DNA from: a virus
Length of the DNA stretch: 64,000 bases
Strand: one strand, 5' to 3'
IMG/VR virus record: IMGVR_UViG_3300044691_000566
Coordinates: 32,001-96,000 of that record
This document shows, piece after piece, positions 2,740 through 21,484 of this stretch. How positions within the stretch are numbered: position 1 is the first letter of the stretch; every line of letters begins with the position of its first letter. Position numbers and translations under genes: made by a program. The notes under the pieces are model-generated. The model had not been told where the DNA came from, did not search any database, and saw only the letters and a list, made by a program, of their open reading frames with translations.

Positions 2740-3038
2740 CCGACCTGGAGATCAAAGTCCTGCGTGCCCTGCGCCAGTACCACGTGAACAGGTTCGGCGC
2801 CGGGGCGGTGAACGACCGCTACCTGGCCTCCCTGGCCCAGGTGGCGGTCGACACCCTGACCACCGGCTCGTTCAACGACCGCCGCCGGGTCACCGACCGG
2901 ATACAGCACTACGCCGACCCCGGCTGCACCCCGGACAGCCTCCGCAAGCTCGCCCGACACATCGAGGGCTCGTTCCATACGATGCCCAACGGCTGGGTGA
3001 GCGCCGATCCCCAGAAAGGACGGATCGCCGATGAGTGA
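2736..3038 (+). CDS. hypothetical protein, possible CTG start
   Basis: Coding-like frame beginning at a CTGA overlap with the upstream stop. Confidence 0.45.
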   Translation: MTDLEIKVLRALRQYHVNRFGAGAVNDRYLASLAQVAVDTLTTGSFNDRRRVTDRIQHYADPGCTPDSLRKLARHIEGSFHTMPNGWVSADPQKGRIADE

Positions 3039-3585
3039 GCCGCCGACCCCGAAGAAGCCGATCACCTGGCCTGAGGTCCCCTGCGACGGGGAGTCGATGA
3101 GCCGGATGACCAGGGAGATGTTCGACAAGCGCGGCGGTCTGTACCCGGTCGTTCAGGAGAATCGCGAGGATCGCTGGCGGACCCTGGTGCTGGCCTACGA
3201 GGCCAACCCCGACTTCTACAATGCCTGGCGCTGGATCAACGAGCACCCGTTGTTCTACCGGTTCAACCGCGAGATCCACGAGCGCGGCCTCATGGAGAAC
3301 CGGGCCGTCGTGGACGGCGGCATGGGCGGCATCGAGATCATTCCCGTCATGGTCAACCCGGCCGATGACACACATTCTCAGGACCCCCGGCTGAACACCA
3401 AGCTGGCGTTCTGGGTGGAGGTCTTCCCCAGGGCCTGGGAGATCGAGCCTGCCAAATCCCTGCACGCGTACGAGCAGGACACCGGGGGCGACACGTACGA
3501 GGAGGCCATCGTCAACGTCGCGGCCGGGATCTACGAGTACTACGGCAATGACCGGGCCCGCCTGGACGAGGAGTGGAAGCAGTGA
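3031..3585 (+). CDS. hypothetical protein
   Basis: 184-aa ORF, overlap coupling. Confidence 0.8.
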   Translation: MSEPPTPKKPITWPEVPCDGESMSRMTREMFDKRGGLYPVVQENREDRWRTLVLAYEANPDFYNAWRWINEHPLFYRFNREIHERGLMENRAVVDGGMGGIEIIPVMVNPADDTHSQDPRLNTKLAFWVEVFPRAWEIEPAKSLHAYEQDTGGDTYEEAIVNVAAGIYEYYGNDRARLDEEWKQ

Positions 3586-3766
3586 ACGTGTCCCTGGACG
3601 ATTTCCAGCCCGTCGAGCCCCTGGTGGGCAAGACCCTGGTCCTGGAGACCACCAGGACCTATCCCTGCGGGAGTGGCCTGGGGACCATGCCGAAGCGGTC
3701 TATCACCCGCAGGGGCACACGGTGACCGAGACCGTGGAGTACAAGGTCGTCGAGGTGAAGCCGTGA
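3582..3766 (+). pseudogene. small ORF with apparent frameshift near 3662
   Basis: MNVSLDDFQPVEPLVGKTLVLETTRTY continues with coding-like sequence in another frame (LREWPGDHAEAVYHPQGHTVTETVEYKVVEVKP). Confidence 0.4.
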
Positions 3767-4059
3767 TGCACCGCAGGCCCCACGAGATCGAGCTGACCCT
3801 GCCGTACGGCGTGCTGGTGAGCGCCCTGTCCCAGTTGGAGAAGATGGAGCTTCTCGGCTTGATCGAGGACGTGGAGGATCAGATCTGCGACTGGGACCTG
3901 ATCGTGCGGCTCAAGAAATGGGTCGACCGGCGGCACAGGCAACTGGCCAAGGAGCGGGCCGAAGAGGAGTCCCGGCGGACGCGCTGCTGTGTCCAGTCGA
4001 CCGAGTATTCCGACCTCAGGGTTCACGCCAGCCCGCACGTGAATTGCATCCTGCGGTGA
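3766..4059 (+). CDS. hypothetical protein
   Basis: TGATG overlap, GAGGTG RBS. Confidence 0.7.
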   Translation: MHRRPHEIELTLPYGVLVSALSQLEKMELLGLIEDVEDQICDWDLIVRLKKWVDRRHRQLAKERAEEESRRTRCCVQSTEYSDLRVHASPHVNCILR

Positions 4060-4271
4060 AGATACCCATCGAGAAGCACCTCATCGCCCGGTTCACCCAG
4101 CCGATCGAGACCCTGGAGTGGCTGCGGCAGCGGGGATACCGAGGGGTGGCCACGCTCGTGCCGGGGATCTCGGGCGGAGGGCTGATATTCAGCAAGAAGA
4201 ACGAACCGGCCTACCTGGCCAATGTGGGGGACACATTGATATGGGACGGCGAGAAGGTCGTCATCCAGTAG
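4056..4271 (+). CDS. hypothetical protein
   Basis: GTGA overlap. Confidence 0.65.
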   Translation: MKIPIEKHLIARFTQPIETLEWLRQRGYRGVATLVPGISGGGLIFSKKNEPAYLANVGDTLIWDGEKVVIQ

Positions 4272-4283
4272 TCGAGGAGCACA

Positions 4284-4823
4284 GTGTCGTCGAGCAATCT
4301 CAGTTTCCGTACCCCTGCCGAACTGATGGGCAAGTTCCGGATCCGGGACATCAAGGGCGTGAAAAACCCGGGCGCCATCGCCAAGCGGGACGTCGAGCGC
4401 TGGTACTCGATGCTGGACGCGTGCCGGAAGCAAGTGCGGCTCCAACCCGCCGAGGCCGTGGTGATGATCTATGCCGCCAACTGGTGGCTCAGCGCCATGA
4501 GCGGGGAGTCGCTCTTGGCGCTGCCCCAGCAGTTGCGCCGGGATCTGAGGATGGACCCCTTCTACCGCGACGCCCAGGACTCGCTGGGCGAGCTGGTCAC
4601 GGAGTGGCCCCTGGGGACGCGTGCGGCCATATGGGACGCCGCTGAGCGCTACGACGTCCTGGCCCACCACCACCCCGACACCACCTTCGGGGCCGCCCTG
4701 CACCAGGTGGGCCTGCACTCCTACAGGCTGGCGCCCGAGGAGCTGGCCGTGGTGGAGACCCTCTCCGCCGTAGAGGCCGACAATTTGCCTGCCGCCTATA
4801 TGCAGGCCGTAAACGAAAGGTGA
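4284..4823 (+). CDS. hypothetical protein
   Basis: GAGGAG RBS, 179 aa. Confidence 0.8.
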   Translation: MSSSNLSFRTPAELMGKFRIRDIKGVKNPGAIAKRDVERWYSMLDACRKQVRLQPAEAVVMIYAANWWLSAMSGESLLALPQQLRRDLRMDPFYRDAQDSLGELVTEWPLGTRAAIWDAAERYDVLAHHHPDTTFGAALHQVGLHSYRLAPEELAVVETLSAVEADNLPAAYMQAVNER

Positions 4824-4829
4824 TCCACC

Positions 4830-5573
4830 ATGGCGTTTGAAACAGAGGTCTACGACCAGTTGCACGGGGAGGGCTATCCGGAGTACAAAGACCATCTTCG
4901 GTCCCTTTACCAAGGTTACGGCGGACGGGAGCAGCGCCTGAGCACCTATGTCTCATCCACCTCCTCCCCCGTCACGAAGCAGTATTACTTCCAGCTTGCC
5001 CTCATGGGCTACCCGGCGAACGCCCAGCAGATTTCTATGGATCTGGAGATCCCGGCAGACCGCGTTATGGACAACGTGCTGGTACGTATCTATCGGGAGG
5101 TGCAGGAGCAGTTCACCTTCAGACTGAGCCCGTACGGGCCGCAGACGATTGAGCACGTGGTCCACTATGAGGTGCTGGTGAGGCTTAGGCAGCGCCTGCT
5201 GGGTGCGGTGAGAGTATCTGTACCCGAGGAGTACGAGGGGGTCGCCGAGGGGAACTTCTCCATGGCGAGCTGCAACAACCTCATCTTCAAGAGGTACCTC
5301 CAGGGCGTCCTGGAGAAGAACACCATGATCGTGGTCTCGCCCGCCCGGCCGGATGAGGCATTGCTGCGCATGGGAGGGCCGTGGACGTTCGGTGCCGACC
5401 CTTCTCGTGCCGACGGCTACGTTTCGAAGCTCATCGGGCGCGCTCCGTCCGAGAAGGGTTCGCAGCTCCAGGACGTGGCCCAGCGCAGCCCGCTGAGCGC
5501 CCAGGACGTGGCGACCAGGAGGCCGACTGCCGCCCGAGAGGTCTTCGAGGGTGCCACGGAGCTGGACCTGTGA
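4830..5573 (+). CDS. hypothetical protein
   Basis: AAGGTG RBS, 247 aa. Confidence 0.75.
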   Translation: MAFETEVYDQLHGEGYPEYKDHLRSLYQGYGGREQRLSTYVSSTSSPVTKQYYFQLALMGYPANAQQISMDLEIPADRVMDNVLVRIYREVQEQFTFRLSPYGPQTIEHVVHYEVLVRLRQRLLGAVRVSVPEEYEGVAEGNFSMASCNNLIFKRYLQGVLEKNTMIVVSPARPDEALLRMGGPWTFGADPSRADGYVSKLIGRAPSEKGSQLQDVAQRSPLSAQDVATRRPTAAREVFEGATELDL

Positions 5574-5755
5574 GCGAAGAGCTGGAGGGCTTCTTCGACC
5601 TGGAGGACGACGACGTCCCGATCCGCTGGTTCGACGCGGCGTACGAGTCGGAGTGCCCCGGCTGCGGGGCGACGATCTTCCCCGGGGATCGGGCCGGGTA
5701 CGTCGGCCACGACGACCAGGCCAGTTGTGCGGGGTGCTGTCTCCAGGCGTCGTAG
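5570..5755 (+). CDS. small Zn-ribbon protein
   Basis: CPGC...I.PGD...CAGC. Confidence 0.65.
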   Translation: MSEELEGFFDLEDDDVPIRWFDAAYESECPGCGATIFPGDRAGYVGHDDQASCAGCCLQAS

Positions 5756-5793
5756 CTGGCGTACAGTGCTGTCGAGAGTTGGACGAGGAAGAG

Positions 5794-5819
5794 GCCCCAG
5801 GATTTTAAAATCCTGGGGC
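5794..5819. terminator. perfect 26-bp palindrome (hairpin) with GATTTTAAAATC core
   Basis: GCCCCAGGATTTTAAAATCCTGGGGC is its own reverse complement. Confidence 0.75.
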
Positions 5820-5827
5820 TTCCCGTC

Positions 5828-5857
5828 TTACCGCTCCAAGGATCCTTGGTGTAGAGT
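5828..5857 (+). promoter_or_regulatory. early promoter, repeated family (variant)
   Basis: TTACCG-CTCCAAGGATCCTTGGTG-TAGAGT. Confidence 0.7.
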
Positions 5858-5897
5858 CGAGATGTCCCGCCAGCGACACCGACTCCACGGAGGCACC

Positions 5898-6197
5898 ATG
5901 AAGCACCAGGTCGCCCGATACGAGGCCCACCGTCCCGCAGGGATGGAGACGAACGACTTCATACTCCTCTTGATGAGCCCCGAAGAGCGCGAGATCTACA
6001 CCGAAGCCATGGTCCGCGCCGGTACCAGCGGCCCCATCCTGGTCAACGGCAAGATCGTCCTCATCTCCGGAGTCCGCATGGACGAGATCTTCCGGGTGGC
6101 CAAGGACAAGGGCGGGCGCCCTTGCTATGAGGACGAGGAGACCGGCTACGTCCACGTGGGCCACTTCGTCTTCGTTCCGGCCCCTGAGGAGAGCTGA
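5898..6197 (+). CDS. hypothetical protein
   Basis: GGAGG RBS; C-terminal PCY.DE.TG.V..G.F.FVP motif shared with the next gene. Confidence 0.75.
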   Translation: MKHQVARYEAHRPAGMETNDFILLLMSPEEREIYTEAMVRAGTSGPILVNGKIVLISGVRMDEIFRVAKDKGGRPCYEDEETGYVHVGHFVFVPAPEES

Positions 6198-6487
6198 TGC
6201 GCTTCCAGCACGTCGTCTACGAGATACACAGGCCCGTCCACCGGCAGATGCCCCAGGCCATGGACGAACTGAGCCCTTACCAGGCCAAACTCTATGTGCA
6301 GGCCAAGGACCGTGCGGTGACGGGCGGTCCGCTCATGGTGGACGGCCGAGTGGCCACGGTGATGCAGGGGGACCTGGACCGCATCATGCGCGGCGTGTTC
6401 CGGAGTCATATCCAGCCGTGCTGGAAGGACGAGGCCACGGGCCACGTCTACGCGGGGGCCTTCATCTACGTACCGCGAAGGGGTTGA
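6197..6487 (+). CDS. hypothetical protein, paralogue of upstream gene
   Basis: PCWKDEATGHVYAGAFIYVP vs PCYEDEETGYVHVGHFVFVP. Confidence 0.75.
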   Translation: MRFQHVVYEIHRPVHRQMPQAMDELSPYQAKLYVQAKDRAVTGGPLMVDGRVATVMQGDLDRIMRGVFRSHIQPCWKDEATGHVYAGAFIYVPRRG

Positions 6488-6525
6488 CTCTCCAACAATC
6501 CTTGGAGTAATGTTGACCACGTCAA
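6484..6525 (+). promoter_or_regulatory. early promoter with palindromic spacer and TTGAC-N3-GTCAA box
   Basis: TTGACT-CTCCAACAATCCTTGGAG-TAATGT, then TGACCACGTCAA. Confidence 0.85.
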
Positions 6526-6553
6526 GGCGACACCGACTCCCCTGGAGGGTCAC

Positions 6554-7474
6554 ATGACCGAAGCCAAGAAGATCTCCGCCCCCGTCATCTCCCGCATCCT
6601 CAACAACGCGGGCCTCAAGAGGGCCCTCACCGGGACGAACTCCTGGAGCAGAGGCTTCGCGGTCACCGACTTCGGCCGCTACGTGAAGGTCGCCTACACC
6701 GCCGTCAACACGGAGCAGGCGGTCGAGATCCTCGGCGAGATCGCTGAAATCATCAACAACCGGGCCGACAAGAAGTACTTCGCCACGCTGGTCCGCGAGA
6801 CCTACGGCTTCGAAGTCCAGGTCGTCGCCCACGACGAGACGGACCCCGAGCAGAACGAGGCCCGCAGGGCCATCGAGCTGGAGAAGCTGGCCGCCCTCCA
6901 CCCGGCCGCGCCGGAGATCAAGGACGTCCGCAAGGCGCTCCTCGGCTACGGCGGCAGCGAGTTCGTGCCGAACCAGGTCTCGGGCTTCCACATCGAGCGC
7001 AAGTCCGACGACACCCGGCTGGTGCGCGTCACCTGGCGCGAGACCTCCTTCACCTCCTACGGGAAGAACAACACCCCGGAGGAGAAGGAGAGCATCATCC
7101 ACGACACCCTGGAGAACTTCGGTCACCGGCTGGTGAAGGCGGGCTTCGACGTTCAGGTGGACTACGACGACGACTGGTGCCTGATCGTGGGCATGCCGGG
7201 GGAGTTCACCCCGGTCGAGGAGGAGACCCCGGAGGAGGTCCGCGAGGCCCTGCTGAAGCTGCGGGAGGCCGTGGAGGACGACGACTCGCTCTACAGCACC
7301 CGCCGGGCCGGGGACTACTCGGTCTTCGTCCGCAGGGGCATCCAGCGCCTGGAGGTCTTCTACGGCCAGGGCGAGTACCGCTCCAAGGGGTTTCTGGGCC
7401 GGGGGGAGACCGTCCGCTTCACCAAGCTGGACGCGAAGCTCCTGAACTTCATCCGGGACGAACTGATCGGCTGA
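6554..7474 (+). CDS. hypothetical protein
   Basis: 306 aa, GGAGG RBS. Confidence 0.85.
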   Translation: MTEAKKISAPVISRILNNAGLKRALTGTNSWSRGFAVTDFGRYVKVAYTAVNTEQAVEILGEIAEIINNRADKKYFATLVRETYGFEVQVVAHDETDPEQNEARRAIELEKLAALHPAAPEIKDVRKALLGYGGSEFVPNQVSGFHIERKSDDTRLVRVTWRETSFTSYGKNNTPEEKESIIHDTLENFGHRLVKAGFDVQVDYDDDWCLIVGMPGEFTPVEEETPEEVREALLKLREAVEDDDSLYSTRRAGDYSVFVRRGIQRLEVFYGQGEYRSKGFLGRGETVRFTKLDAKLLNFIRDELIG

Positions 7475-7487
7475 CCCGAACCATTTC

Positions 7488-7546
7488 GGCCGCCCTCTTC
7501 GGAGGGCGGCCCTGGGGTTGCACTCCAACAATCCTTGTAGTAATGT
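7488..7546 (+). promoter_or_regulatory. UUCG hairpin followed by early promoter
   Basis: GGCCGCCCTC-TTCG-GAGGGCGGCC; GTTGCA-CTCCAACAATCCTTGTAG-TAATGT. Confidence 0.8.
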
Positions 7547-7585
7547 CTTCTTTGTCAGCAGGAATCGACTCCCCAGGAGGCCACT

Positions 7586-8626
7586 ATGGCGCTCTCCCCG
7601 CAGGCCCGCAGCGAAGCCGTCTCCCTGATGTCCAGCGAGAGCAACTTCGAGCGCAGCGGCATCTCCGGCCAGCGAGCCAGCAAGTCCTCGCTTCCCCCTC
7701 GTCAGGGCGAGCTGCCCGAGGACGTCTATCGCGACCTGGTGGAGACCATCAGCCGGGACGACGTGTCCTACGTGATCTTCTCCTACCAGACCCCGATCGC
7801 CTGGGTGCACCGCAACGGCGCCGTGACGATGCCGGAGATCGGGTACTCCGCGACCACGAGCCAGCACCGGAAGATGGTCCGCGAGGCGTTCCCCGACCTG
7901 GTGAACGTGCGCGACATGCTGGCGGAGAGCCGGGCCGCCGCGTCGGTCACGGCCCCCTCGGCCAGCCAGTACGCCGAGCTGGGTGAGGACGACCTGATCG
8001 AGCTGGCCTCGGGGCTGGGTTCGCGGCTGAGCGAGATTCGTAGCGAGATGATCCGCCAGGACACCACGCTGGAACTGGTAGCCGTGGTCGAGGCCCTGAA
8101 GGCCCGGCGTGACGCCACCGCCAAGGCCCGGCACCGGATCGGCGAGTACCTGCGCCACCAGGGCCTCCTGGAGGCCAAGTACCAGGCGGCCCAGGCCAGT
8201 ACCTCGGACCACGCCAAGCGCACGGACAAGCAGCCCGATGAGGTTGTGAGCGAGGTCCGGGCCGATGAGTACACGGTTGCGGCCAAGCTCCTGCTGAGCG
8301 ACCTGAACCGCGTGGTGGGCCTGACCGTCCGCGACTCCAAGGCGGAGTTCTACGCTGAGCAGGAGGCCCGGCTGGCGCACTACCTGGAGCACCAGGGCAC
8401 CAAGCTGCCGGAGAAGCAGCGGGTGCTGCTGGCGTGCATCGCCAAGGGACACATCACCGCGTACAGCACCGAAGGCTACCGCCAGGCCTACGACACGAAG
8501 TGCGACACCTGCCAGCGCCCCGACGGCCGCACCGTGGGCGCCTTGGAGCGGAAGGGCTTCCTGGGGTCTCGCAGGGGTCTGGGCTGGAACTCCGGCTCCA
8601 CGCTGTGCCTGAAGAAGCCCAGTTGA
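7586..8626 (+). CDS. hypothetical protein with conserved actinophage N-terminal domain
   Basis: YVIFSYQTPIAW...YSATTSQH motif; GGAGG RBS. Confidence 0.8.
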   Translation: MALSPQARSEAVSLMSSESNFERSGISGQRASKSSLPPRQGELPEDVYRDLVETISRDDVSYVIFSYQTPIAWVHRNGAVTMPEIGYSATTSQHRKMVREAFPDLVNVRDMLAESRAAASVTAPSASQYAELGEDDLIELASGLGSRLSEIRSEMIRQDTTLELVAVVEALKARRDATAKARHRIGEYLRHQGLLEAKYQAAQASTSDHAKRTDKQPDEVVSEVRADEYTVAAKLLLSDLNRVVGLTVRDSKAEFYAEQEARLAHYLEHQGTKLPEKQRVLLACIAKGHITAYSTEGYRQAYDTKCDTCQRPDGRTVGALERKGFLGSRRGLGWNSGSTLCLKKPS

Positions 8627-16106: not shown

Positions 16107-16549
16107 CCGTCTACCGCGTCGTCCTGACGGCCATAACGGCCGCTGGCCGCCCTCTGCCGGACGAGTACCCCTTCGAGGTGGAAGTCGAGCAGTCCCCGCG
16201 ACACTGGCGCGAGGGGGACATGGTGACCGAGGCCATCACCCAGGCCGACAAGCTCTTCTACGCCCGTACCTCGTTCGTGTGCGGCGTGAAGCTGGGCGTG
16301 CGCCGGGTGGAGCGCCAGTGGGAGTCCGGCAAGGGCTGGACCGAGCTGGTCACCGCCTACCGGGCCACGCCGGGCACCTGGATCAAGCTGGAGTCCGTCT
16401 ACGACGGCCAGCCCTGGTGGGGATGGCGCTGTGTGGCCCGCTGGGAGCCCACGGGCGACGGCACGTGCCGTCTGATCACCACCCACGCCAGGAACCCGCA
16501 GGGGGGCGTCTACGGGCGTGACGACGTTTTCGAGAAGAGGAGGGTCTGA
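16103..16549 (+). CDS. hypothetical protein
   Basis: ATGA overlap. Confidence 0.7.
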   Translation: MTVYRVVLTAITAAGRPLPDEYPFEVEVEQSPRHWREGDMVTEAITQADKLFYARTSFVCGVKLGVRRVERQWESGKGWTELVTAYRATPGTWIKLESVYDGQPWWGWRCVARWEPTGDGTCRLITTHARNPQGGVYGRDDVFEKRRV

Positions 16550-16551
16550 CC

Positions 16552-16788
16552 ATGGTGGACACGATGTGGCTGGGCAACGCCGACGGTGAATACGTCGGCG
16601 TCGGCGAAGACCTGGACACGGTGATGGACGTGCTCAAGGCGGCCTTCGCCGAGGAGAAGGAGATGACGGACGAGGAGGCCGAGAAGCGCCTGGGCCAGGA
16701 CCTGAAGCTCCAGGACTATTTCGTCACCCTGGACGGGGTCCGGCAGCGCGACTACAGCGCAATTCGGGTGAACGTGCTGGGGAGTTGA
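16552..16788 (+). CDS. hypothetical protein
   Basis: GGAGG RBS. Confidence 0.75.
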   Translation: MVDTMWLGNADGEYVGVGEDLDTVMDVLKAAFAEEKEMTDEEAEKRLGQDLKLQDYFVTLDGVRQRDYSAIRVNVLGS

Positions 16789-16811
16789 CACTTCAAGGAT
16801 TGGAGAATGCA

Positions 16812-16970
16812 GTGAAGAAGCCCAAGCATGCGGCCGACCGCTGCTACCGCATCTACGACCGCGACAATTCCGCGCCCCAGCACTGCTCCGAGCCCGAGGG
16901 CCATGACGGCCTGTGCGGGACCAACTGGGAGTGGTGCGACCGGTACAACGACGGTTCGTGTTTGCTGTAG
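16812..16970 (+). CDS. small Cys/His protein
   Basis: HC..PEGHDG.C motif. Confidence 0.55.
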   Translation: MKKPKHAADRCYRIYDRDNSAPQHCSEPEGHDGLCGTNWEWCDRYNDGSCLL

Positions 16971-16974
16971 GGGG

Positions 16975-17016
16975 TTGACGCTCCAACAATCCTTGTAGTA
17001 GTCTTGACCCTGTCAG
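16975..17016 (+). promoter_or_regulatory. early promoter + box
   Basis: TTGACG-CTCCAACAATCCTTGTAG-TAGTCT-TGACCCTGTCAG. Confidence 0.85.
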
Positions 17017-17043
17017 CACCGAACGACTCCCCTGGAGGCCCAT

Positions 17044-17361
17044 ATGGCGCTCAAGCCCCTCTCCCGCAAGCTCGCCGAGCAGGCCCTCACCGCCGTCAAG
17101 GGCCAGTACAAGAGCTACATGGCGGACGGCGAGGAGTACGGCCCGAAGCTGGTCGAGGCGTGGGACGGCACCCACTGGGCGATCTGCTGGGACGAGGGCC
17201 CGTTCGAGTGGACGCTCAGCAGCCCCGAGGGCGGCATCGACAAGGACCTGTCGGCGATGATGGACCAGCTCGTGGAGACCCCCGCCGCTGAGGGCTTCCC
17301 CGAGGAGGTCTTCGCGGAGCCCTACTGTGGCTCGGTGCTGTGCCTGTACCCCAGCTCCTGA
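17044..17361 (+). CDS. hypothetical protein
   Basis: I.W..GPFEW...VFAEPY...L.LYP. Confidence 0.8.
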   Translation: MALKPLSRKLAEQALTAVKGQYKSYMADGEEYGPKLVEAWDGTHWAICWDEGPFEWTLSSPEGGIDKDLSAMMDQLVETPAAEGFPEEVFAEPYCGSVLCLYPSS

Positions 17362-17399
17362 GCACCACAGCCCGCCGGAGCTGCGATCCCGGCACCCAA

Positions 17400-17480
17400 T
17401 TCCCGGTCGTCTACTTGGTGAAGACGCTCCGTCGGGCCGCACCCGGGGGAGGGACGCTGGTTCGACTCCGGCACGGGAAG
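17400..17480 (+). ncRNA. tRNA-like RNA (Gln-type body) with extended, non-canonical anticodon arm
   Basis: Acceptor TTCCCG/CGGGAA; D arm GTCT-ACTTGGTGA-AGAC; T arm GCTGG-TTCGACT-CCGGC; long stem closed by CCGCA in place of the anticodon arm. Confidence 0.75.
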
Positions 17481-17512
17481 CGCCAGAGAACACCCGAGCA
17501 CAGGGAGCCCAT

Positions 17513-17830
17513 ATGCCCATGTTCAAGATCCAGCCCGCCTCGCGGATCGACAACCTCACGGCCCACGGCGATGTGGGGCTCCAGCGTCCGTACCCCGTCT
17601 ACGCCGACAACAAGGGCAACGTGGAGTTCCAGCGCTCCTTCCGGGGCCGGGTGACCCGCGTCGTGGGCTTCCAGAAGGACCTGGCCGTCCAGCAGATCGA
17701 CCTGTCGTGGAGCGAGGCCCAGAAGAACCCGGACAAGGTCGTGGGCATGTACCTGGTCACGGCCGACAGCAAGGGTGACCTCGGCGTGCACGACACCGCC
17801 GTGGAGACCTTCGAGGAGGTGGTGCTGTGA
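17513..17830 (+). CDS. hypothetical protein
   Basis: GGGAG RBS directly after the tRNA-like element. Confidence 0.8.
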   Translation: MPMFKIQPASRIDNLTAHGDVGLQRPYPVYADNKGNVEFQRSFRGRVTRVVGFQKDLAVQQIDLSWSEAQKNPDKVVGMYLVTADSKGDLGVHDTAVETFEEVVL

Positions 17831-18342
17831 GCATCGACAGAGTCCAGGTCGGCCGGATCTTCCGGCACAAGGCGGACGGCCGCCGCTACGTGCGAATCGA
17901 CCGCCTCTTCGATTCGCTCGATCAGCCGCCGGTCCCGGGCGTCTCGTTCGCCATCTGGGATCTCCGGGAGGGGGTGAGAGCGAAGTGGGAGGAGTTCTCC
18001 GTCCTGCCGGTTGCCATGTTCAATGAGCAGTACCGGTACGCGGCGCAGTTCTTCGAGAACCAGCAGGCCGAGATGGCCGAGGCCACCGCGATGCGCGAGA
18101 AGCTCCAGGCGGACATCGAAGCCGCCCTGGAGGCCGTCGGAGCCCAGGACCCGGCCGCCGTGGCCGGGCTGTTCGTCCGCCTGGTGCAGAACGAGTGCGC
18201 CCACCGTATCTACACCCACGACGGGTTCAAGGAGGGGTGTGCCGCAGGCTGCTGCGACTCCACCACGGACGACGCGGCCGAAGTGATCGAGGTGGAGATC
18301 ACCGACGCGGAGCGCGAGGAGCTGCTCGGGGAGAGCGCTTGA
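17827..18342 (+). CDS. hypothetical protein
   Basis: GTGA overlap. Confidence 0.75.
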   Translation: MSIDRVQVGRIFRHKADGRRYVRIDRLFDSLDQPPVPGVSFAIWDLREGVRAKWEEFSVLPVAMFNEQYRYAAQFFENQQAEMAEATAMREKLQADIEAALEAVGAQDPAAVAGLFVRLVQNECAHRIYTHDGFKEGCAAGCCDSTTDDAAEVIEVEITDAEREELLGESA

Positions 18343-18380
18343 CGCTCCAACAATCCTTGTAGTAGTCTTGACTCTGTCAG
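18339..18380 (+). promoter_or_regulatory. early promoter + box
   Basis: TTGACG-CTCCAACAATCCTTGTAG-TAGTCT-TGACTCTGTCAG. Confidence 0.85.
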
Positions 18381-18408
18381 CACGACGACGACTCCTCAGG
18401 AGGCCCAC

Positions 18409-19266
18409 ATGGCCCGTACCCGCGAAGACCTCATCGCCCAGGTGCTCAAGCTCAACGAGATGGCCAACCGCTCCAGCGAGGCCGACGATGCCGACGACGA
18501 CAACGGTGTGGCCCACGCCGAGATCGTGGACAACGCGACCCGCAAGGCGGCCAAGATCATGCGGCGCCACCAGATCACCGAGGCCGAGATCGGCCAGGCG
18601 CAGGCCGCCAAGGACGAGGAGTTCGTCCACTTCACGTTCTCGGTGCGCAACACCTACGGGCTGGGCAAGGAGCGCTCCACCGCCCTCCACCACGCCGTGA
18701 TCGTCCCCTTCGGCGGCAACTCGATGCGGACCGTCTACAAGTCGGCCAAGTCCGACACGGAGATGACCGTTTTCGCCCCGGCCAGCATCGCCGAGATGCT
18801 CAAGTCGCTGCTGTACAGCATCTCCCTCCAGATGGAGGAGGGCCTGAGGTCGGCGAGCAAGGGCGAGCGCCAGCGGATCGACGAGTCGGTCTTCTCCTGG
18901 ACCCAGGCGGAGATCAACAAGCAGGTCCTGCTCTTCCGCCGGGGCTACCTGCGGGGCTTCGCCTCCACGGTGGGCTCGCGCATCAAGGCCGCCCAGGACG
19001 AGGCCATGGAGGAGATCAAGCGGGAGCTGGAGGCCGAGGGCCGCTCGGTGTCGGCGGGCACGGAGATCGCCCTGTACGACTCCAGCAGGAAGGCGGGCGA
19101 CTTCATGAACGCCTGGTACACCGGTACCAGCGGCGGCGGGAAGCTCCGCAAGACGTCCAACCGCGCCCGGTCGTCGAGCAAGGGCATCGAGGCCGGGGCG
19201 CGGGACGGCCGCCGGGCCGACATCACCCCGCCCAGGACCGACCCGAACCGCCGCTCGTTGGTCTGA
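18409..19266 (+). CDS. DUF2786-like domain protein
   Basis: N-terminal I..V.KL..MA...A..KA.KIM.RH.I; FRRGYL.GFA..V..R. Confidence 0.7.
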   Translation: MARTREDLIAQVLKLNEMANRSSEADDADDDNGVAHAEIVDNATRKAAKIMRRHQITEAEIGQAQAAKDEEFVHFTFSVRNTYGLGKERSTALHHAVIVPFGGNSMRTVYKSAKSDTEMTVFAPASIAEMLKSLLYSISLQMEEGLRSASKGERQRIDESVFSWTQAEINKQVLLFRRGYLRGFASTVGSRIKAAQDEAMEEIKRELEAEGRSVSAGTEIALYDSSRKAGDFMNAWYTGTSGGGKLRKTSNRARSSSKGIEAGARDGRRADITPPRTDPNRRSLV

Positions 19267-19305
19267 TGGAGGACGGCCCGCCGGGAGCCGTAATCCCGGC
19301 ACCAT

Positions 19306-19384
19306 GCCCCTGTAGCTCAATAGGCAGAGCGACCGACGCCCTCGGGCAGTCGGGACGATGCGGGTTCGAGTCCCGTCGAGGGCA
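19306..19384 (+). ncRNA. tRNA-like RNA (Phe-type body) with anticodon loop replaced by a hairpin
   Basis: GCCCCTG-TA-GCTC-AATAGGCA-GAGC...CCGAC-GCCCTCGGGC-A-GTCGG...GCGGG-TTCGAGT-CCCGT-CGAGGGC-A. Confidence 0.8.
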
Positions 19385-19413
19385 CGCCAGAGAATCAACC
19401 CGAGGAGGACCGT

Positions 19414-19767
19414 ATGGGACGGATCAAGCCGAGCAGGTCCAGGCGCATTCGCCCGCAGGACGTCGAGACGGTGGAGGATCTGTACGCGGGGCTCAACCAG
19501 GTCGCGGAACAGGCCCTGGACAAGCTCTCCGGGCGCCTGCTGGCCGCCGGGGCGTCCCCGGAGGACGTGGCGGCCCACTACGACGCCGTGAGGGCGCAGG
19601 CGGCCATGTACGTGCTCCAGATGGACCTGATGTCGTTCATCGACACGCGGCCCGACGCCGGGATCCAGCAGATCATCTTCGACGAGCTGATGAAGGACAT
19701 CAATCCGGTGGAGGCGCTGGCCATCGGTCTGCCGGACGCCGAGGACAACCCGACGGAAGAGGTCTGA
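19414..19767 (+). CDS. hypothetical protein
   Basis: GAGGAGG RBS directly after the tRNA-like element. Confidence 0.75.
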   Translation: MGRIKPSRSRRIRPQDVETVEDLYAGLNQVAEQALDKLSGRLLAAGASPEDVAAHYDAVRAQAAMYVLQMDLMSFIDTRPDAGIQQIIFDELMKDINPVEALAIGLPDAEDNPTEEV

Positions 19768-19768
19768 C

Positions 19769-20212
19769 ATGGGTGCATGGGGTACCGCCGTCTTCGACAA
19801 CGACAACGCCGCCGACTTTGCGGGGTCCCTGGAGTACTGCTCCACGACCGAAGCCCGCACCGACCTGCTGACCGCAACGCTGCGGGCGCTCATCGAGCTG
19901 GAGGACACGGAGCGCTGGCTCATGGCCGGGGACTTCGAGTTCCCCTACGAGATCGAGCACGCGCTGGCCGCTGCGGCCTTTGTGGCCGACCGCAAGAACG
20001 GCCGGGAGGAGTTCATCAACGTCTCCTACGCGCAGGGCCACGACAGGGAGACGGACACCTGGTACACCATCCCCCTGGACGAGCCCACCCCGACCCTGAT
20101 CAACGACGCCCTGACCGCCGTGGAGAAGATCCTGCGGCAGATGGAGGCCGACAAGGTCGAGGACGAGTGGCAGGCGAGCGCCCGTAAGATCTTCGCGGCT
20201 CTCCTCGCATAA
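19769..20212 (+). CDS. DUF4259-like protein
   Basis: MGAWG...FDND.A.DF N-terminal signature. Confidence 0.75.
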   Translation: MGAWGTAVFDNDNAADFAGSLEYCSTTEARTDLLTATLRALIELEDTERWLMAGDFEFPYEIEHALAAAAFVADRKNGREEFINVSYAQGHDRETDTWYTIPLDEPTPTLINDALTAVEKILRQMEADKVEDEWQASARKIFAALLA

Positions 20213-20216
20213 CCCC

Positions 20217-20258
20217 TTGACACTCCAACAATCCTTGGGGTAGTGTTGACCTTGTCAA
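20217..20258 (+). promoter_or_regulatory. early promoter + box driving the RNA cluster
   Basis: TTGACA-CTCCAACAATCCTTGGGG-TAGTGT-TGACCTTGTCAA. Confidence 0.85.
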
Positions 20259-20373
20259 GACGACGCGGTAGCGTCACTCAGCTCGTCCGAGAGACATCCG
20301 TGAACGAGCGGGGCGGAGGACGGGAGTGGGGGGACTGATCATCCCCCGATCCCTCTTCGCGGCCCTAGTACGG

Positions 20374-20447
20374 TCCTCCATAGCTCAGTTGGCCAGAGCA
20401 GTGCACTGTTAATGCACGGGTCGCAGGTTCGAGTCCTGCTGGAGGAG
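20374..20447 (+). tRNA. tRNA-Asn(GTT)
   Basis: Full cloverleaf; anticodon arm GTGCA-CTGTTAA-TGCAC. Confidence 0.95.
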
Positions 20448-20539
20448 CGGGGTACTGCGCAGTAACCGGCTGCTGGCCGGAAGTACCTTAGCCGGGTCTG
20501 TCCGTCATCCCGGGTGCACGAAAGACGGATGCACGATGG

Positions 20540-20608
20540 TCCTCCGTAGCTCAGTGGCCAGAGCGGGCCCGAAGGGGATGCGCGCGGGTTCAACTCCCGC
20601 CGGAGGAT
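20540..20608 (+). ncRNA. tRNA-like RNA (Asn-type body) with truncated anticodon arm
   Basis: Intact acceptor TCCTCCG/CGGAGGA, D arm and T arm; anticodon arm reduced to CCC-GAA-GGG. Confidence 0.75.
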
Positions 20609-20674
20609 CTTGCACGGCCCTGGGTAGGGGCTACCGAACCGGTTTGACCCACCGTACGTGCGAAACGGGTCGCT

Positions 20675-20749
20675 GCCCCTGTAGCTCAGTTTGGCAAGAG
20701 CGCTCGTCTGAAACACGAGAGGTCGCTGGTTCGATTCCAGCCGGGGGCA
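20675..20749 (+). tRNA. tRNA-Phe(GAA)
   Basis: Full cloverleaf; CTCGT-CTGAAAC-ACGAG. Confidence 0.95.
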
Positions 20750-20880
20750 CGCTAGGGACCCACCAGCTTGGTTATCGGATGGGCGCAGATAGAGAGTTGC
20801 CGTCAGATGAAGGTCGGCATCCACTCGCTGCCCGATGTGGGAGCAGAACGGCTAATCACCGTGGACAAGACCAAGCACAT

Positions 20881-20953
20881 GCCCCCGTAGCCCAACGGCT
20901 GAGGCCCCGGCTTCAAACACCGGAAGATGTGGGTTCGAATCCCACCGGGGGTA
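20881..20953 (+). tRNA. tRNA-Leu(CAA), short variable arm
   Basis: Cloverleaf; CCGGC-TTCAAAC-ACCGG with a C31-A39 mismatch; discriminator A. Confidence 0.75.
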
Positions 20954-20959
20954 CGCAAG

Positions 20960-21112
20960 TTCGAGGACTGAGTGGTGAGCGTAGGCCGGTTCAACTCCGG
21001 CCGTCCCGAGGGCTCGGGTGTGGGGTTCGATTCCCCTTGACCATGGTGGCGAACAGGGATCGCGGCGTCAGTGCCGTGCCCGCGCAGAGGGGTTCGACTC
21101 CCTTCCGGTCCA
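20960..21112 (+). ncRNA. degenerate tRNA-like modules (three T arms)
   Basis: GCCGG-TTCAACT-CCGGC, GGGG-TTCGATT-CCCC and AGGGG-TTCGACT-CCCTT without canonical anticodon arms. Confidence 0.6.
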
Positions 21113-21268
21113 CGGCGGTGCCAGTGGAGACGACAGCCGACTCCACACGGGTACGGAGAGGCCAACTGGGGTGATCCGCGTGGCGGCGCTCCCCCAGCAA
21201 GATCTCCGTGCGGACGAGGCCATACGTCCCCCGCACCTTTTTAAAATCTCGACTCCCCAGGAGGCGCC

Positions 21269-21484
21269 ATGGTTGTACCGACCCCCGAACGCGGCGAGTA
21301 CACGGAGCTGGCCGAACGGCTCATCGAGGAGATCGAGATGGCGACCGTCGCCGAGGTGGTGCTGCTCCGCAAGCGCATCGACGGAGCCCTGGCCTACCTG
21401 GACGAGGTGGTCACGCCCAACCAGATCACGCTGCGGCACATTCGTCGGCACCTGGACGGCGGCTACGACGGGATGCCGGGCTGA
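21269..21484 (+). CDS. hypothetical protein
   Basis: Conserved GACTCCCCAGGAGG leader. Confidence 0.75.
   Translation: MVVPTPERGEYTELAERLIEEIEMATVAEVVLLRKRIDGALAYLDEVVTPNQITLRHIRRHLDGGYDGMPG

Follow-up and report, generated by a model that had tools for sequence, protein, structure and literature searches.

The locus considered here raises the question of what stands in front of its two tRNA mimics. The stretch analysed, referred to below as the window, is 64,000 nt long and covers bases 32001-96000 of the IMG/VR virus record IMGVR_UViG_3300044691_000566, a high-GC sequence of 159,746 bp that has direct terminal repeats. In it, a short leader precedes each of two tRNA-like elements, and an earlier note on this DNA had taken leader, mimic and 3′ trailer to be one dedicated unit. 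Two points are at issue: (i) whether the leader is a structured RNA; and (ii) whether it belongs to the mimic or is an element in its own right. The leader in front of each mimic is a compact, autonomous H-type RNA pseudoknot, and the same element is placed between neighbouring genes by many unrelated phages, mostly without a tRNA nearby.

The two copies are about 28 nt long and near-identical. Each starts 6 nt past the TGA of a plus-strand gene and ends 5-6 nt ahead of the tRNA-like element, and re-reading of the sequence places both leaders where the earlier note had put them. In copy 1 (17368..17393, plus strand), the first stem (S1) pairs CAGC at 17368-17371 with GCTG at 17380-17383, the first loop (L1) is CC (17372-17373), and the second stem (S2) pairs GCCGG at 17374-17378 with CCGGC at 17389-17393, with ACC directly 3′. 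In copy 2 (19273..19300, plus strand), S1 pairs ACGGC at 19273-19277 with GCCGT at 19287-19291, L1 is again CC (19278-19279), and S2 pairs GCCGGG(A) at 19280-19286 with (T)CCCGGC at 19294-19300, followed directly by ACCA. The assignments rest on the sequence, on covariation in the family and on a covariance model (A1, R1) built from 26 copies. When the model built from relatives was run over the whole 159,746-bp genome, R1 found only copies 1 and 2, at 39.7 bits (E 3e-6) and 44.3 bits (E 3e-7), respectively, the next-best match scoring 14.7 bits (E 0.8). Nested minimum-free-energy folding of the leaders was uninformative, since a pseudoknot is beyond what nested folds represent.

Read from 5′ to 3′, the element consists of a (xxGC), CC, b (GCCGG[G]), A, a′ (GCxx), a few nucleotides ending in AT, b′ ([C]CCGGC) and A. 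Since the a/a′ and b/b′ pairings interleave (a, b, a′, b′), the fold is an H-type pseudoknot; counting the A-U closing pair, its stems make up a quasi-continuous helix of ~10 bp that two 2-nt loops span. In the family consensus, S1 is xxGC/GCxx, of 3-6 bp and always including GC/GC; S2 is GCC[G/C]GG(A), of 5-7 bp and typically GCCGGG/CCCGGC; and the third loop (L3) ends in AT. The family tallies are based on 125 pseudoknot-class copies counted in 90 loci among the matches listed. L1 is 2 nt of the form C-N (CC 91, CA 11, CG 10, CT 6), the combined S1 and S2 helix ranges from 8 to 13 bp, and an A lies directly 3′ of S2 in 104 of the 125 copies. Past S2 that A is all that is kept: the triplets include AGA, ACT, ACA, AAA, AAC, ATC and others, so that the “7-bp helix ending in ACCA” to which the earlier note had drawn attention is a trait of a high-GC or CA-rich subset and not of the family.

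The pairing itself is supported by covariation in both stems. In an alignment of 56 sequences made with the covariance model, 97% of cells are paired, whereas slid registers pair only 22-49%, and none of 500 shuffles attained any of the pairing or covariation measures. The S1 pair is GC in 34, CG in 13 and AU in one of these hits, and the S2 pair is GC in 53 and CG in three. Among divergent copies there are compensatory swaps in S2, from GCCGGG/CCCGGC to GCCCGG/CCGGGC or to a 5-bp form, and in S1, as GGC/GCC, CGC/GCG, AGC/GCT and extended forms of up to 6 bp. At the third S1 pair, the main covarying position of the family, one window copy has A-U and the other G-C; the change between them, suspected earlier to be compensatory, is genuinely so. 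A second scan fixed only S2 and the first two loop bases and left the 5′ flank unspecified. Among the matches listed from that scan, 36 of 70 new ones have at least three Watson-Crick S1 pairs with an L1 of exactly 2 nt, as against 0-2 of 70 at every other L1 offset; the others fold as simple hairpins whose short loops read GCA or GCG, and some of these are ordinary terminators. The prediction of a structured pseudoknot, for which a covariance model and a search of further copies had been proposed as a check, is thus borne out by the family. A coding motif (P-A-G..I-P-A-P) was dropped as an account of the conserved sequence, because loop indels break the frame, as was a phage RNA polymerase promoter, to which covariation of two interleaved helices is unsuited.

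The family is widely spread. A pattern derived from the window copies matched 32 IMG/VR stretches, about 24 of which share the full consensus in an intergenic position past a stop codon, and the covariance model found many further, more divergent copies in those other contigs. In the second scan, at least 120 IMG/VR contigs match. Phages carry from one to seven copies, which are clustered, and several may sit within 1.5 kb; the GC content flanking family copies ranges from 29% to 73%. With a stricter pattern, 16 bacterial genomes or metagenome-assembled genomes (MAGs) of many phyla match, including Bacillota, Chloroflexota, Terriglobia, Spirochaetes, Desulfobacterales, Saccharimonadales, Brevibacterium, Phenylobacterium, Roseovarius and Sutterella. 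Four host genomes bearing the element hold 0-2 copies each, and it is therefore not a host repeat. Like the repetitive extragenic palindromic (REP) elements, it is short, GC-rich, structured and extragenic, just past stop codons; unlike them, it is carried by phages and is a pseudoknot rather than a long imperfect palindrome, and a host REP element was dropped as a candidate on the copy number. In a Fermentithermobacillaceae MAG (L055:5787-5833), the pseudoknot and its flanks make up a spacer of a CRISPR array whose repeat is 37 nt long. An identity as a CRISPR repeat or anti-CRISPR RNA was considered and dropped, as there is no repeat-like 3′ handle.

The position of the element relative to genes is regular. 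The end of the same-strand open reading frame (ORF) lies a median of 8 nt before S1 (interquartile range (IQR) 5-12), and the start codon a median of 25 nt past S2 (IQR 20-31), while an antisense control gives far broader distances for both. The usual layout is therefore that of a stop codon, 5-12 nt, the pseudoknot, 20-31 nt and a start codon, with the element sense to the genes. Spacers between the genes are 55 nt long at the median, their lengths are uniform modulo 3 (25/26/22), and 52 of 73 downstream starts are without a Shine-Dalgarno-like 4-mer. The flanking proteins are diverse, unrelated small ORFs in which neither a common function nor a shared partner gene was seen; integrase and methyltransferase genes are also found in the flanking regions by PHROG matches, and one flanking protein has an N-terminus that reads like SSB, yet has no PHROG match. 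In a group of CA-rich phages (L003, L006, L013, L021, L025, L026, L027, L030 and similar), the leaders 3′ of the pseudoknot contain little G and no Shine-Dalgarno sequence. In this group, GCC-TGA-CC is a frequent end of the upstream gene; 17 of 43 upstream proteins end in Ala, several of them in AAA. An ssrA-like C-terminal tag was considered on this account and dropped, as the Ala enrichment tracks the GCC-TGA-CC nucleotide context in that one phage group.

The pseudoknot family is apparently undescribed. Rfam 15 gave no overlap with either window pseudoknot at E ≤10 and none with copies in seven other loci at E ≤1, so that the earlier note's remark that it fitted no recognised RNA family holds for this release. 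No match was found for the 2.8-kb region in near and distant BLAST searches against INPHARED, from which the window's own genome and very near relatives were possibly absent. A 45-nt pseudoknot query gave only chance-level matches there, inside coding genes, and BLAST of the L013 and L081 neighbourhoods gave none; no cultured phage could be tied to the element by these INPHARED searches. Literature searches by sequence fragment and by keyword did not find a description of the motif. A bioRxiv paper on bacterial tRNA mimics deals with the skipping-rope, DUF2693-FD and salivarius-1 RNAs; the abstract makes no mention of this pseudoknot, and no Rfam family matches here.

With respect to the second point, the tRNA-like elements of the window are unequal. 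Element 1 (17400..17480, plus strand) has a minimum-free-energy cloverleaf with D and T arms and a T-loop motif at 17459, with a hairpin of 9 bp and a 5-nt loop standing in for the anticodon arm; it is not called by ARAGORN and has no Rfam match. Element 2 (19306..19385, plus strand) scores 45.5 bits on the Rfam tRNA model and is called Gly-gcc by ARAGORN, with a 12-nt insert at the position of the anticodon loop. The tRNA (RF00005) yardstick applied to the mimics was a cloverleaf with a 7-nt anticodon loop and at least 29 bits. In the tRNA cluster of the window, further elements with a T-loop (GGTTCAACTCC, GGTTCGATTCC, GGTTCGACTCC) occur at 20537-20607 and 20960-21110; neither ARAGORN nor Rfam calls a tRNA there, and no pseudoknot lies ahead of them.

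Across the family, a tRNA or tRNA-like gene lies within 140 nt downstream of only about eight of the 125 copies, and ~94% are without such a neighbour. The associated copies are the two in the window and those of L005, L012, L054, L088, L115 and L120. Brevibacterium oceani (L054) has an array of 19 tRNA genes within 5 kb (2934-7827), where the 31 nt separating tRNA-Gly from tRNA-Asp are taken up by the pseudoknot. Three large, high-GC phage contigs have the same layout as the window, namely a stop codon, the pseudoknot, a tRNA-like gene, a ribosome-binding site (RBS) module and an ATG (L088:7550-7780, minus strand; L115:2427-2560; L120:5700-5891, minus strand). Their tRNA-like genes have a long hairpin of ~40 nt in place of the anticodon arm and an encoded 3′ CCA, and each is followed by that phage's own RBS module; the tRNA model gives that of L115 34.8 bits. 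In these contigs 5, 7 or ~35 nt separate the pseudoknot from the tRNA-like gene, and L088 has an extra hairpin between the two. Because the order of pseudoknot and then tRNA-like element recurs in a few large, high-GC phage contigs besides this one (L012, L088, L115 and L120), the pairing in the window is not accidental. The combination is recurrent in one lineage, yet it is assembled from separable modules.

The trailer is one such module. The earlier note had seen a trailer shared by both mimics, and it is indeed present at 17481 and 19385 (CGCCAGAGAA, 1-3 nt, ACCCGAG), but it is not specific to mimics. After element 1 it begins a stretch made up of a generic start-associated motif (CGCCAGAGAA...), a Shine-Dalgarno sequence and the ATG (17513) of the next gene (17481..17515, plus strand), and the same arrangement follows element 2 (19385..19416, plus strand, ATG at 19414). 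With up to one mismatch the trailer motif occurs 13 times in the window versus 4.9 expected, and none of 100 shuffles has as many. The genome has 17 exact copies of CGCCAGAGA, 15 in forward orientation, and none of a reversed control pattern; in those read within the window, an RBS and ATG follow after 10-25 nt. A fuller motif, CGCCAGAGA(T/A), 0-4 nt and CCCG(A/G)GGAGG, is found upstream of many ATGs. Further window copies of the start-associated motif, all on the plus strand, are at 287, 2677, 11665, 14662, 24165, 27191, 29801, 33580 and 39921, and in at least 3-4 of them (24165, 27191, 29801, 287) the motif starts 7-9 nt past a -10-like hexamer. The trailer is thus the translation-initiation module of the next gene, generic to this phage and outside the RNA element. 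A similar motif just upstream of many starts, the start-associated sequence (SAS), is sometimes preceded in Cluster K mycobacteriophages by a structured inverted repeat, the extended SAS (ESAS) (PMC3203893). The trailer resembles it in being one motif, nearly always in a single orientation as SAS copies are, just upstream of starts in one phage; its sequence is different, and ESAS is a 17-bp inverted repeat of one phage cluster, whereas the pseudoknot is a 28-nt interleaved fold found across host phyla.

The operon context of the two units is alike. Unit 1 follows a gene for 105 aa taken from the ORF list (17044..17361, plus strand, TGA at 17359-17361), whose product has no PHROG match. Unit 2 follows one for 285 aa assigned to phrog_421 (18409..19266, plus strand, E 1e-16, TGA at 19264-19266), and a search for loci related via this protein found no relatives. 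Both genes are the first downstream of a promoter-like repeat, which heads operon 1 at 16975..17004 (plus strand; TTGAC-N-CTCCAACAATCCTTG plus TAGTCT) and operon 2 at 18339..18368 (plus strand). The repeat, TTGAC-N-CTCCAACAATCCTTG and then TAGTAGTCT, has 11 window copies, all on the plus strand, versus none expected from shuffles (6484, 7517, 9243, 10464, 13298, 16975, 18339, 20217, 30258, 33536 and 58383). No terminator-like hairpin with a T run was found on the plus strand in 16400-21400, a region that includes both spacers.

The function of the element is a matter of inference, and there are multiple possible scenarios. The one that we favour, although we rate it somewhat short of an even chance, is that the pseudoknot is a cis-acting element for intercistronic punctuation, insulation and stability, which together with the tRNA-like gene would form an RNA-processing cassette at this locus. 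As a very stable punctuation structure, it would act in cis on polycistronic mRNA, keeping folded the one ribosome-free stretch between two cistrons; the region where downstream translation initiates would thereby be shielded from upstream sequence, and nucleases would be impeded. In the window, RNase P may cut the 5′ end of the tRNA-like element, such that the upstream mRNA would end ~4-6 nt past the pseudoknot and retain it as a 3′-terminal protective cap, there being no terminator. The 3′ tRNA processing of the tRNA-like element would then free the downstream mRNA, which would start at CGCCAGAGA, the motif that also lies 7-9 nt past the -10-like hexamers of several phage promoters. Intercistronic processing sites are known from the RNase III sites of the T7 early region and from the tRNA punctuation of mitochondrial transcripts. 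The pseudoknot likewise is a structured intercistronic element, and the tRNA-like element beside it would offer host tRNA-processing enzymes a putative cut site; unlike the T7 sites, there is no long duplex, and cleavage here is a prediction.

Several points weigh against this scenario. Every processing step in it is one that we infer. Most members of the family are without a tRNA-like neighbour, and a cap made by RNase P therefore cannot be the general mechanism. Its main weakness is that about 20 nucleotides are near-invariant across phyla, which a purely structural stabiliser or insulator does not obviously need, and this suggests a specific partner (a protein, the ribosome, RNA polymerase or a ligand) or a precise tertiary fold; part of the apparent invariance comes from pattern-based ascertainment of the copies.

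The same invariance argues for an operator, aptamer or ribozyme, in which the conserved nucleotides would either bind some partner, whether a universal host factor (ribosome, RNA polymerase or ribosomal protein), a phage-encoded protein or a small molecule, or make up a minimal self-cleaving fold, and the downstream cistron would be controlled. About 20 of the 28 nt are kept over the whole range of flanking GC and many host phyla, the start codon lies at a fixed distance of 20-31 nt, and most downstream starts are without a Shine-Dalgarno-like 4-mer. Such a role is nevertheless rather unlikely. The flanking genes are unrelated, with no common partner noted among them, and 1.5 kb may hold several copies. 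In a tRNA array the element has no cistron beside it to be translated, and no Rfam riboswitch or ribozyme resembles it.

A related idea is that S1 and S2, stacked coaxially and ending in A-CC(A), imitate the minihelix of a tRNA acceptor and T arm, in which case RNase P (cleaving within L1), the CCA-adding enzyme or a synthetase would act on the element itself. The plant RNA virus TYMV (turnip yellow mosaic virus) has a tRNA-like structure whose acceptor arm is an H-type pseudoknot, in which the hairpin loop pairs with sequence 5′ of the hairpin (a 3-bp S1). The topology and the strand order, a 5′ strand, a hairpin and a loop pairing back, are the same here, and A-CC lies past the 3′ strand in both window copies. 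Bacterial RNase P is reported to cleave small pseudoknots with a 3′ RCCA in loop 1 (PMC12710915), and the association with tRNA arrays and the frequent A past S2 also fit. Unlike the structure of TYMV, the element is not at the 3′ end of an RNA, has no T arm stacked below it and resides in the operons of DNA phages. Moreover, CC(A) is not conserved once the pattern stops demanding it, the combined helix varies from 8 to 13 bp, and any of C, A, G and T may stand at position -1, where U is usual. We regard acceptor mimicry as improbable.

It could also be supposed that the motif acts as DNA, either as a recombination linker or cassette boundary or as a protein-binding inverted repeat, with no RNA structure. 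The PeSL elements (promoter early stem-loop) of T4-type phages, each a promoter with a simple stem-loop, are lineage-specific and act via DNA recombination (PMC2839356, PMC4122927). As with these, the pseudoknot is a multi-copy, conserved intergenic motif flanking small variable ORFs in early or accessory regions, conservation often extends a little way upstream, over the stop codon, and 17 of 43 upstream proteins end in Ala. Two interleaved, covarying complementary pairs are, however, inexplicable by a palindrome in duplex DNA; the orientation is always sense to the genes; and, unlike PeSL, the core is conserved across phyla, the same one occurring in phages too divergent for mutual recombination. 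A DNA-level role is accordingly given little weight.

Three further explanations have very little chance of being right. One is the dedicated unit of the earlier note, a single non-coding RNA in which the pseudoknot is specifically the 5′ leader of the mimic; it accords with the 5-6 nt spacing of both window copies and with the recurring order in four other loci, but it is largely refuted by the distribution of the family, with at least 120 phage contigs carrying the pseudoknot and ~94% of copies lacking a tRNA-like neighbour, by the variable distance to the mimic and the intervening hairpin of L088, and by a trailer that stands 17 times in the genome ahead of ordinary genes. Another is that the pseudoknot, like a classical recoding stimulator, drives readthrough, frameshifting or termination-reinitiation from the stop codon; the median of 8 nt to S1 (IQR 5-12) falls within the 5-9 nt spacer of such stimulators and TGA followed by C is common, yet with intergenic length uniform modulo 3 there is no defined frame relation, which speaks against fusions by readthrough or frameshifting, differences in loop length are not in steps of three, tRNA genes too can precede the element, and every downstream ORF has its own start codon. 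The last is a transcription signal, either a terminator without a U tract or a put-type antiterminator that binds RNA polymerase, for which a position directly past stop codons, the usual terminator site, and a core conserved enough for a universal partner would be suitable, but no T run follows the window copies or the pseudoknot-class copies, the matches with a T run are plain hairpins without S1 pairing, a separate terminator-like hairpin follows some copies (L045, L071), and up to seven copies occur in one operon region.

Finally, we consider what the pseudoknot would mean more broadly. On a bolder reading, which is less likely than not, this 28-nt fold would represent a new class of phage RNA element that crosses phyla, a portable intercistronic part whose near-invariant core engages a universal host machine or is intrinsically active (as an exoribonuclease-resistant block, a module binding the ribosome or RNA polymerase, or a minimal processing site), and together with anticodon-less tRNA-like elements it would lead to tRNA-punctuated mRNA processing in large actinophages. 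If indeed undescribed, it would be among the smallest and most widely distributed structured RNA motifs of phage genomes, its bearer genomes or MAGs spanning Bacillota, Actinomycetota, Proteobacteria, Chloroflexota and bacteria of the candidate phyla radiation (CPR; Saccharimonadales). If 28 nt suffice for function in cells so diverse, the element would inform on conserved steps of mRNA processing, decay or initiation, and could be of use as a portable insulator or stabiliser for synthetic operons. For the phage analysed here, the arrangement suggests that anticodon-less tRNA-like genes serve as processing signals within operons rather than as decoders.

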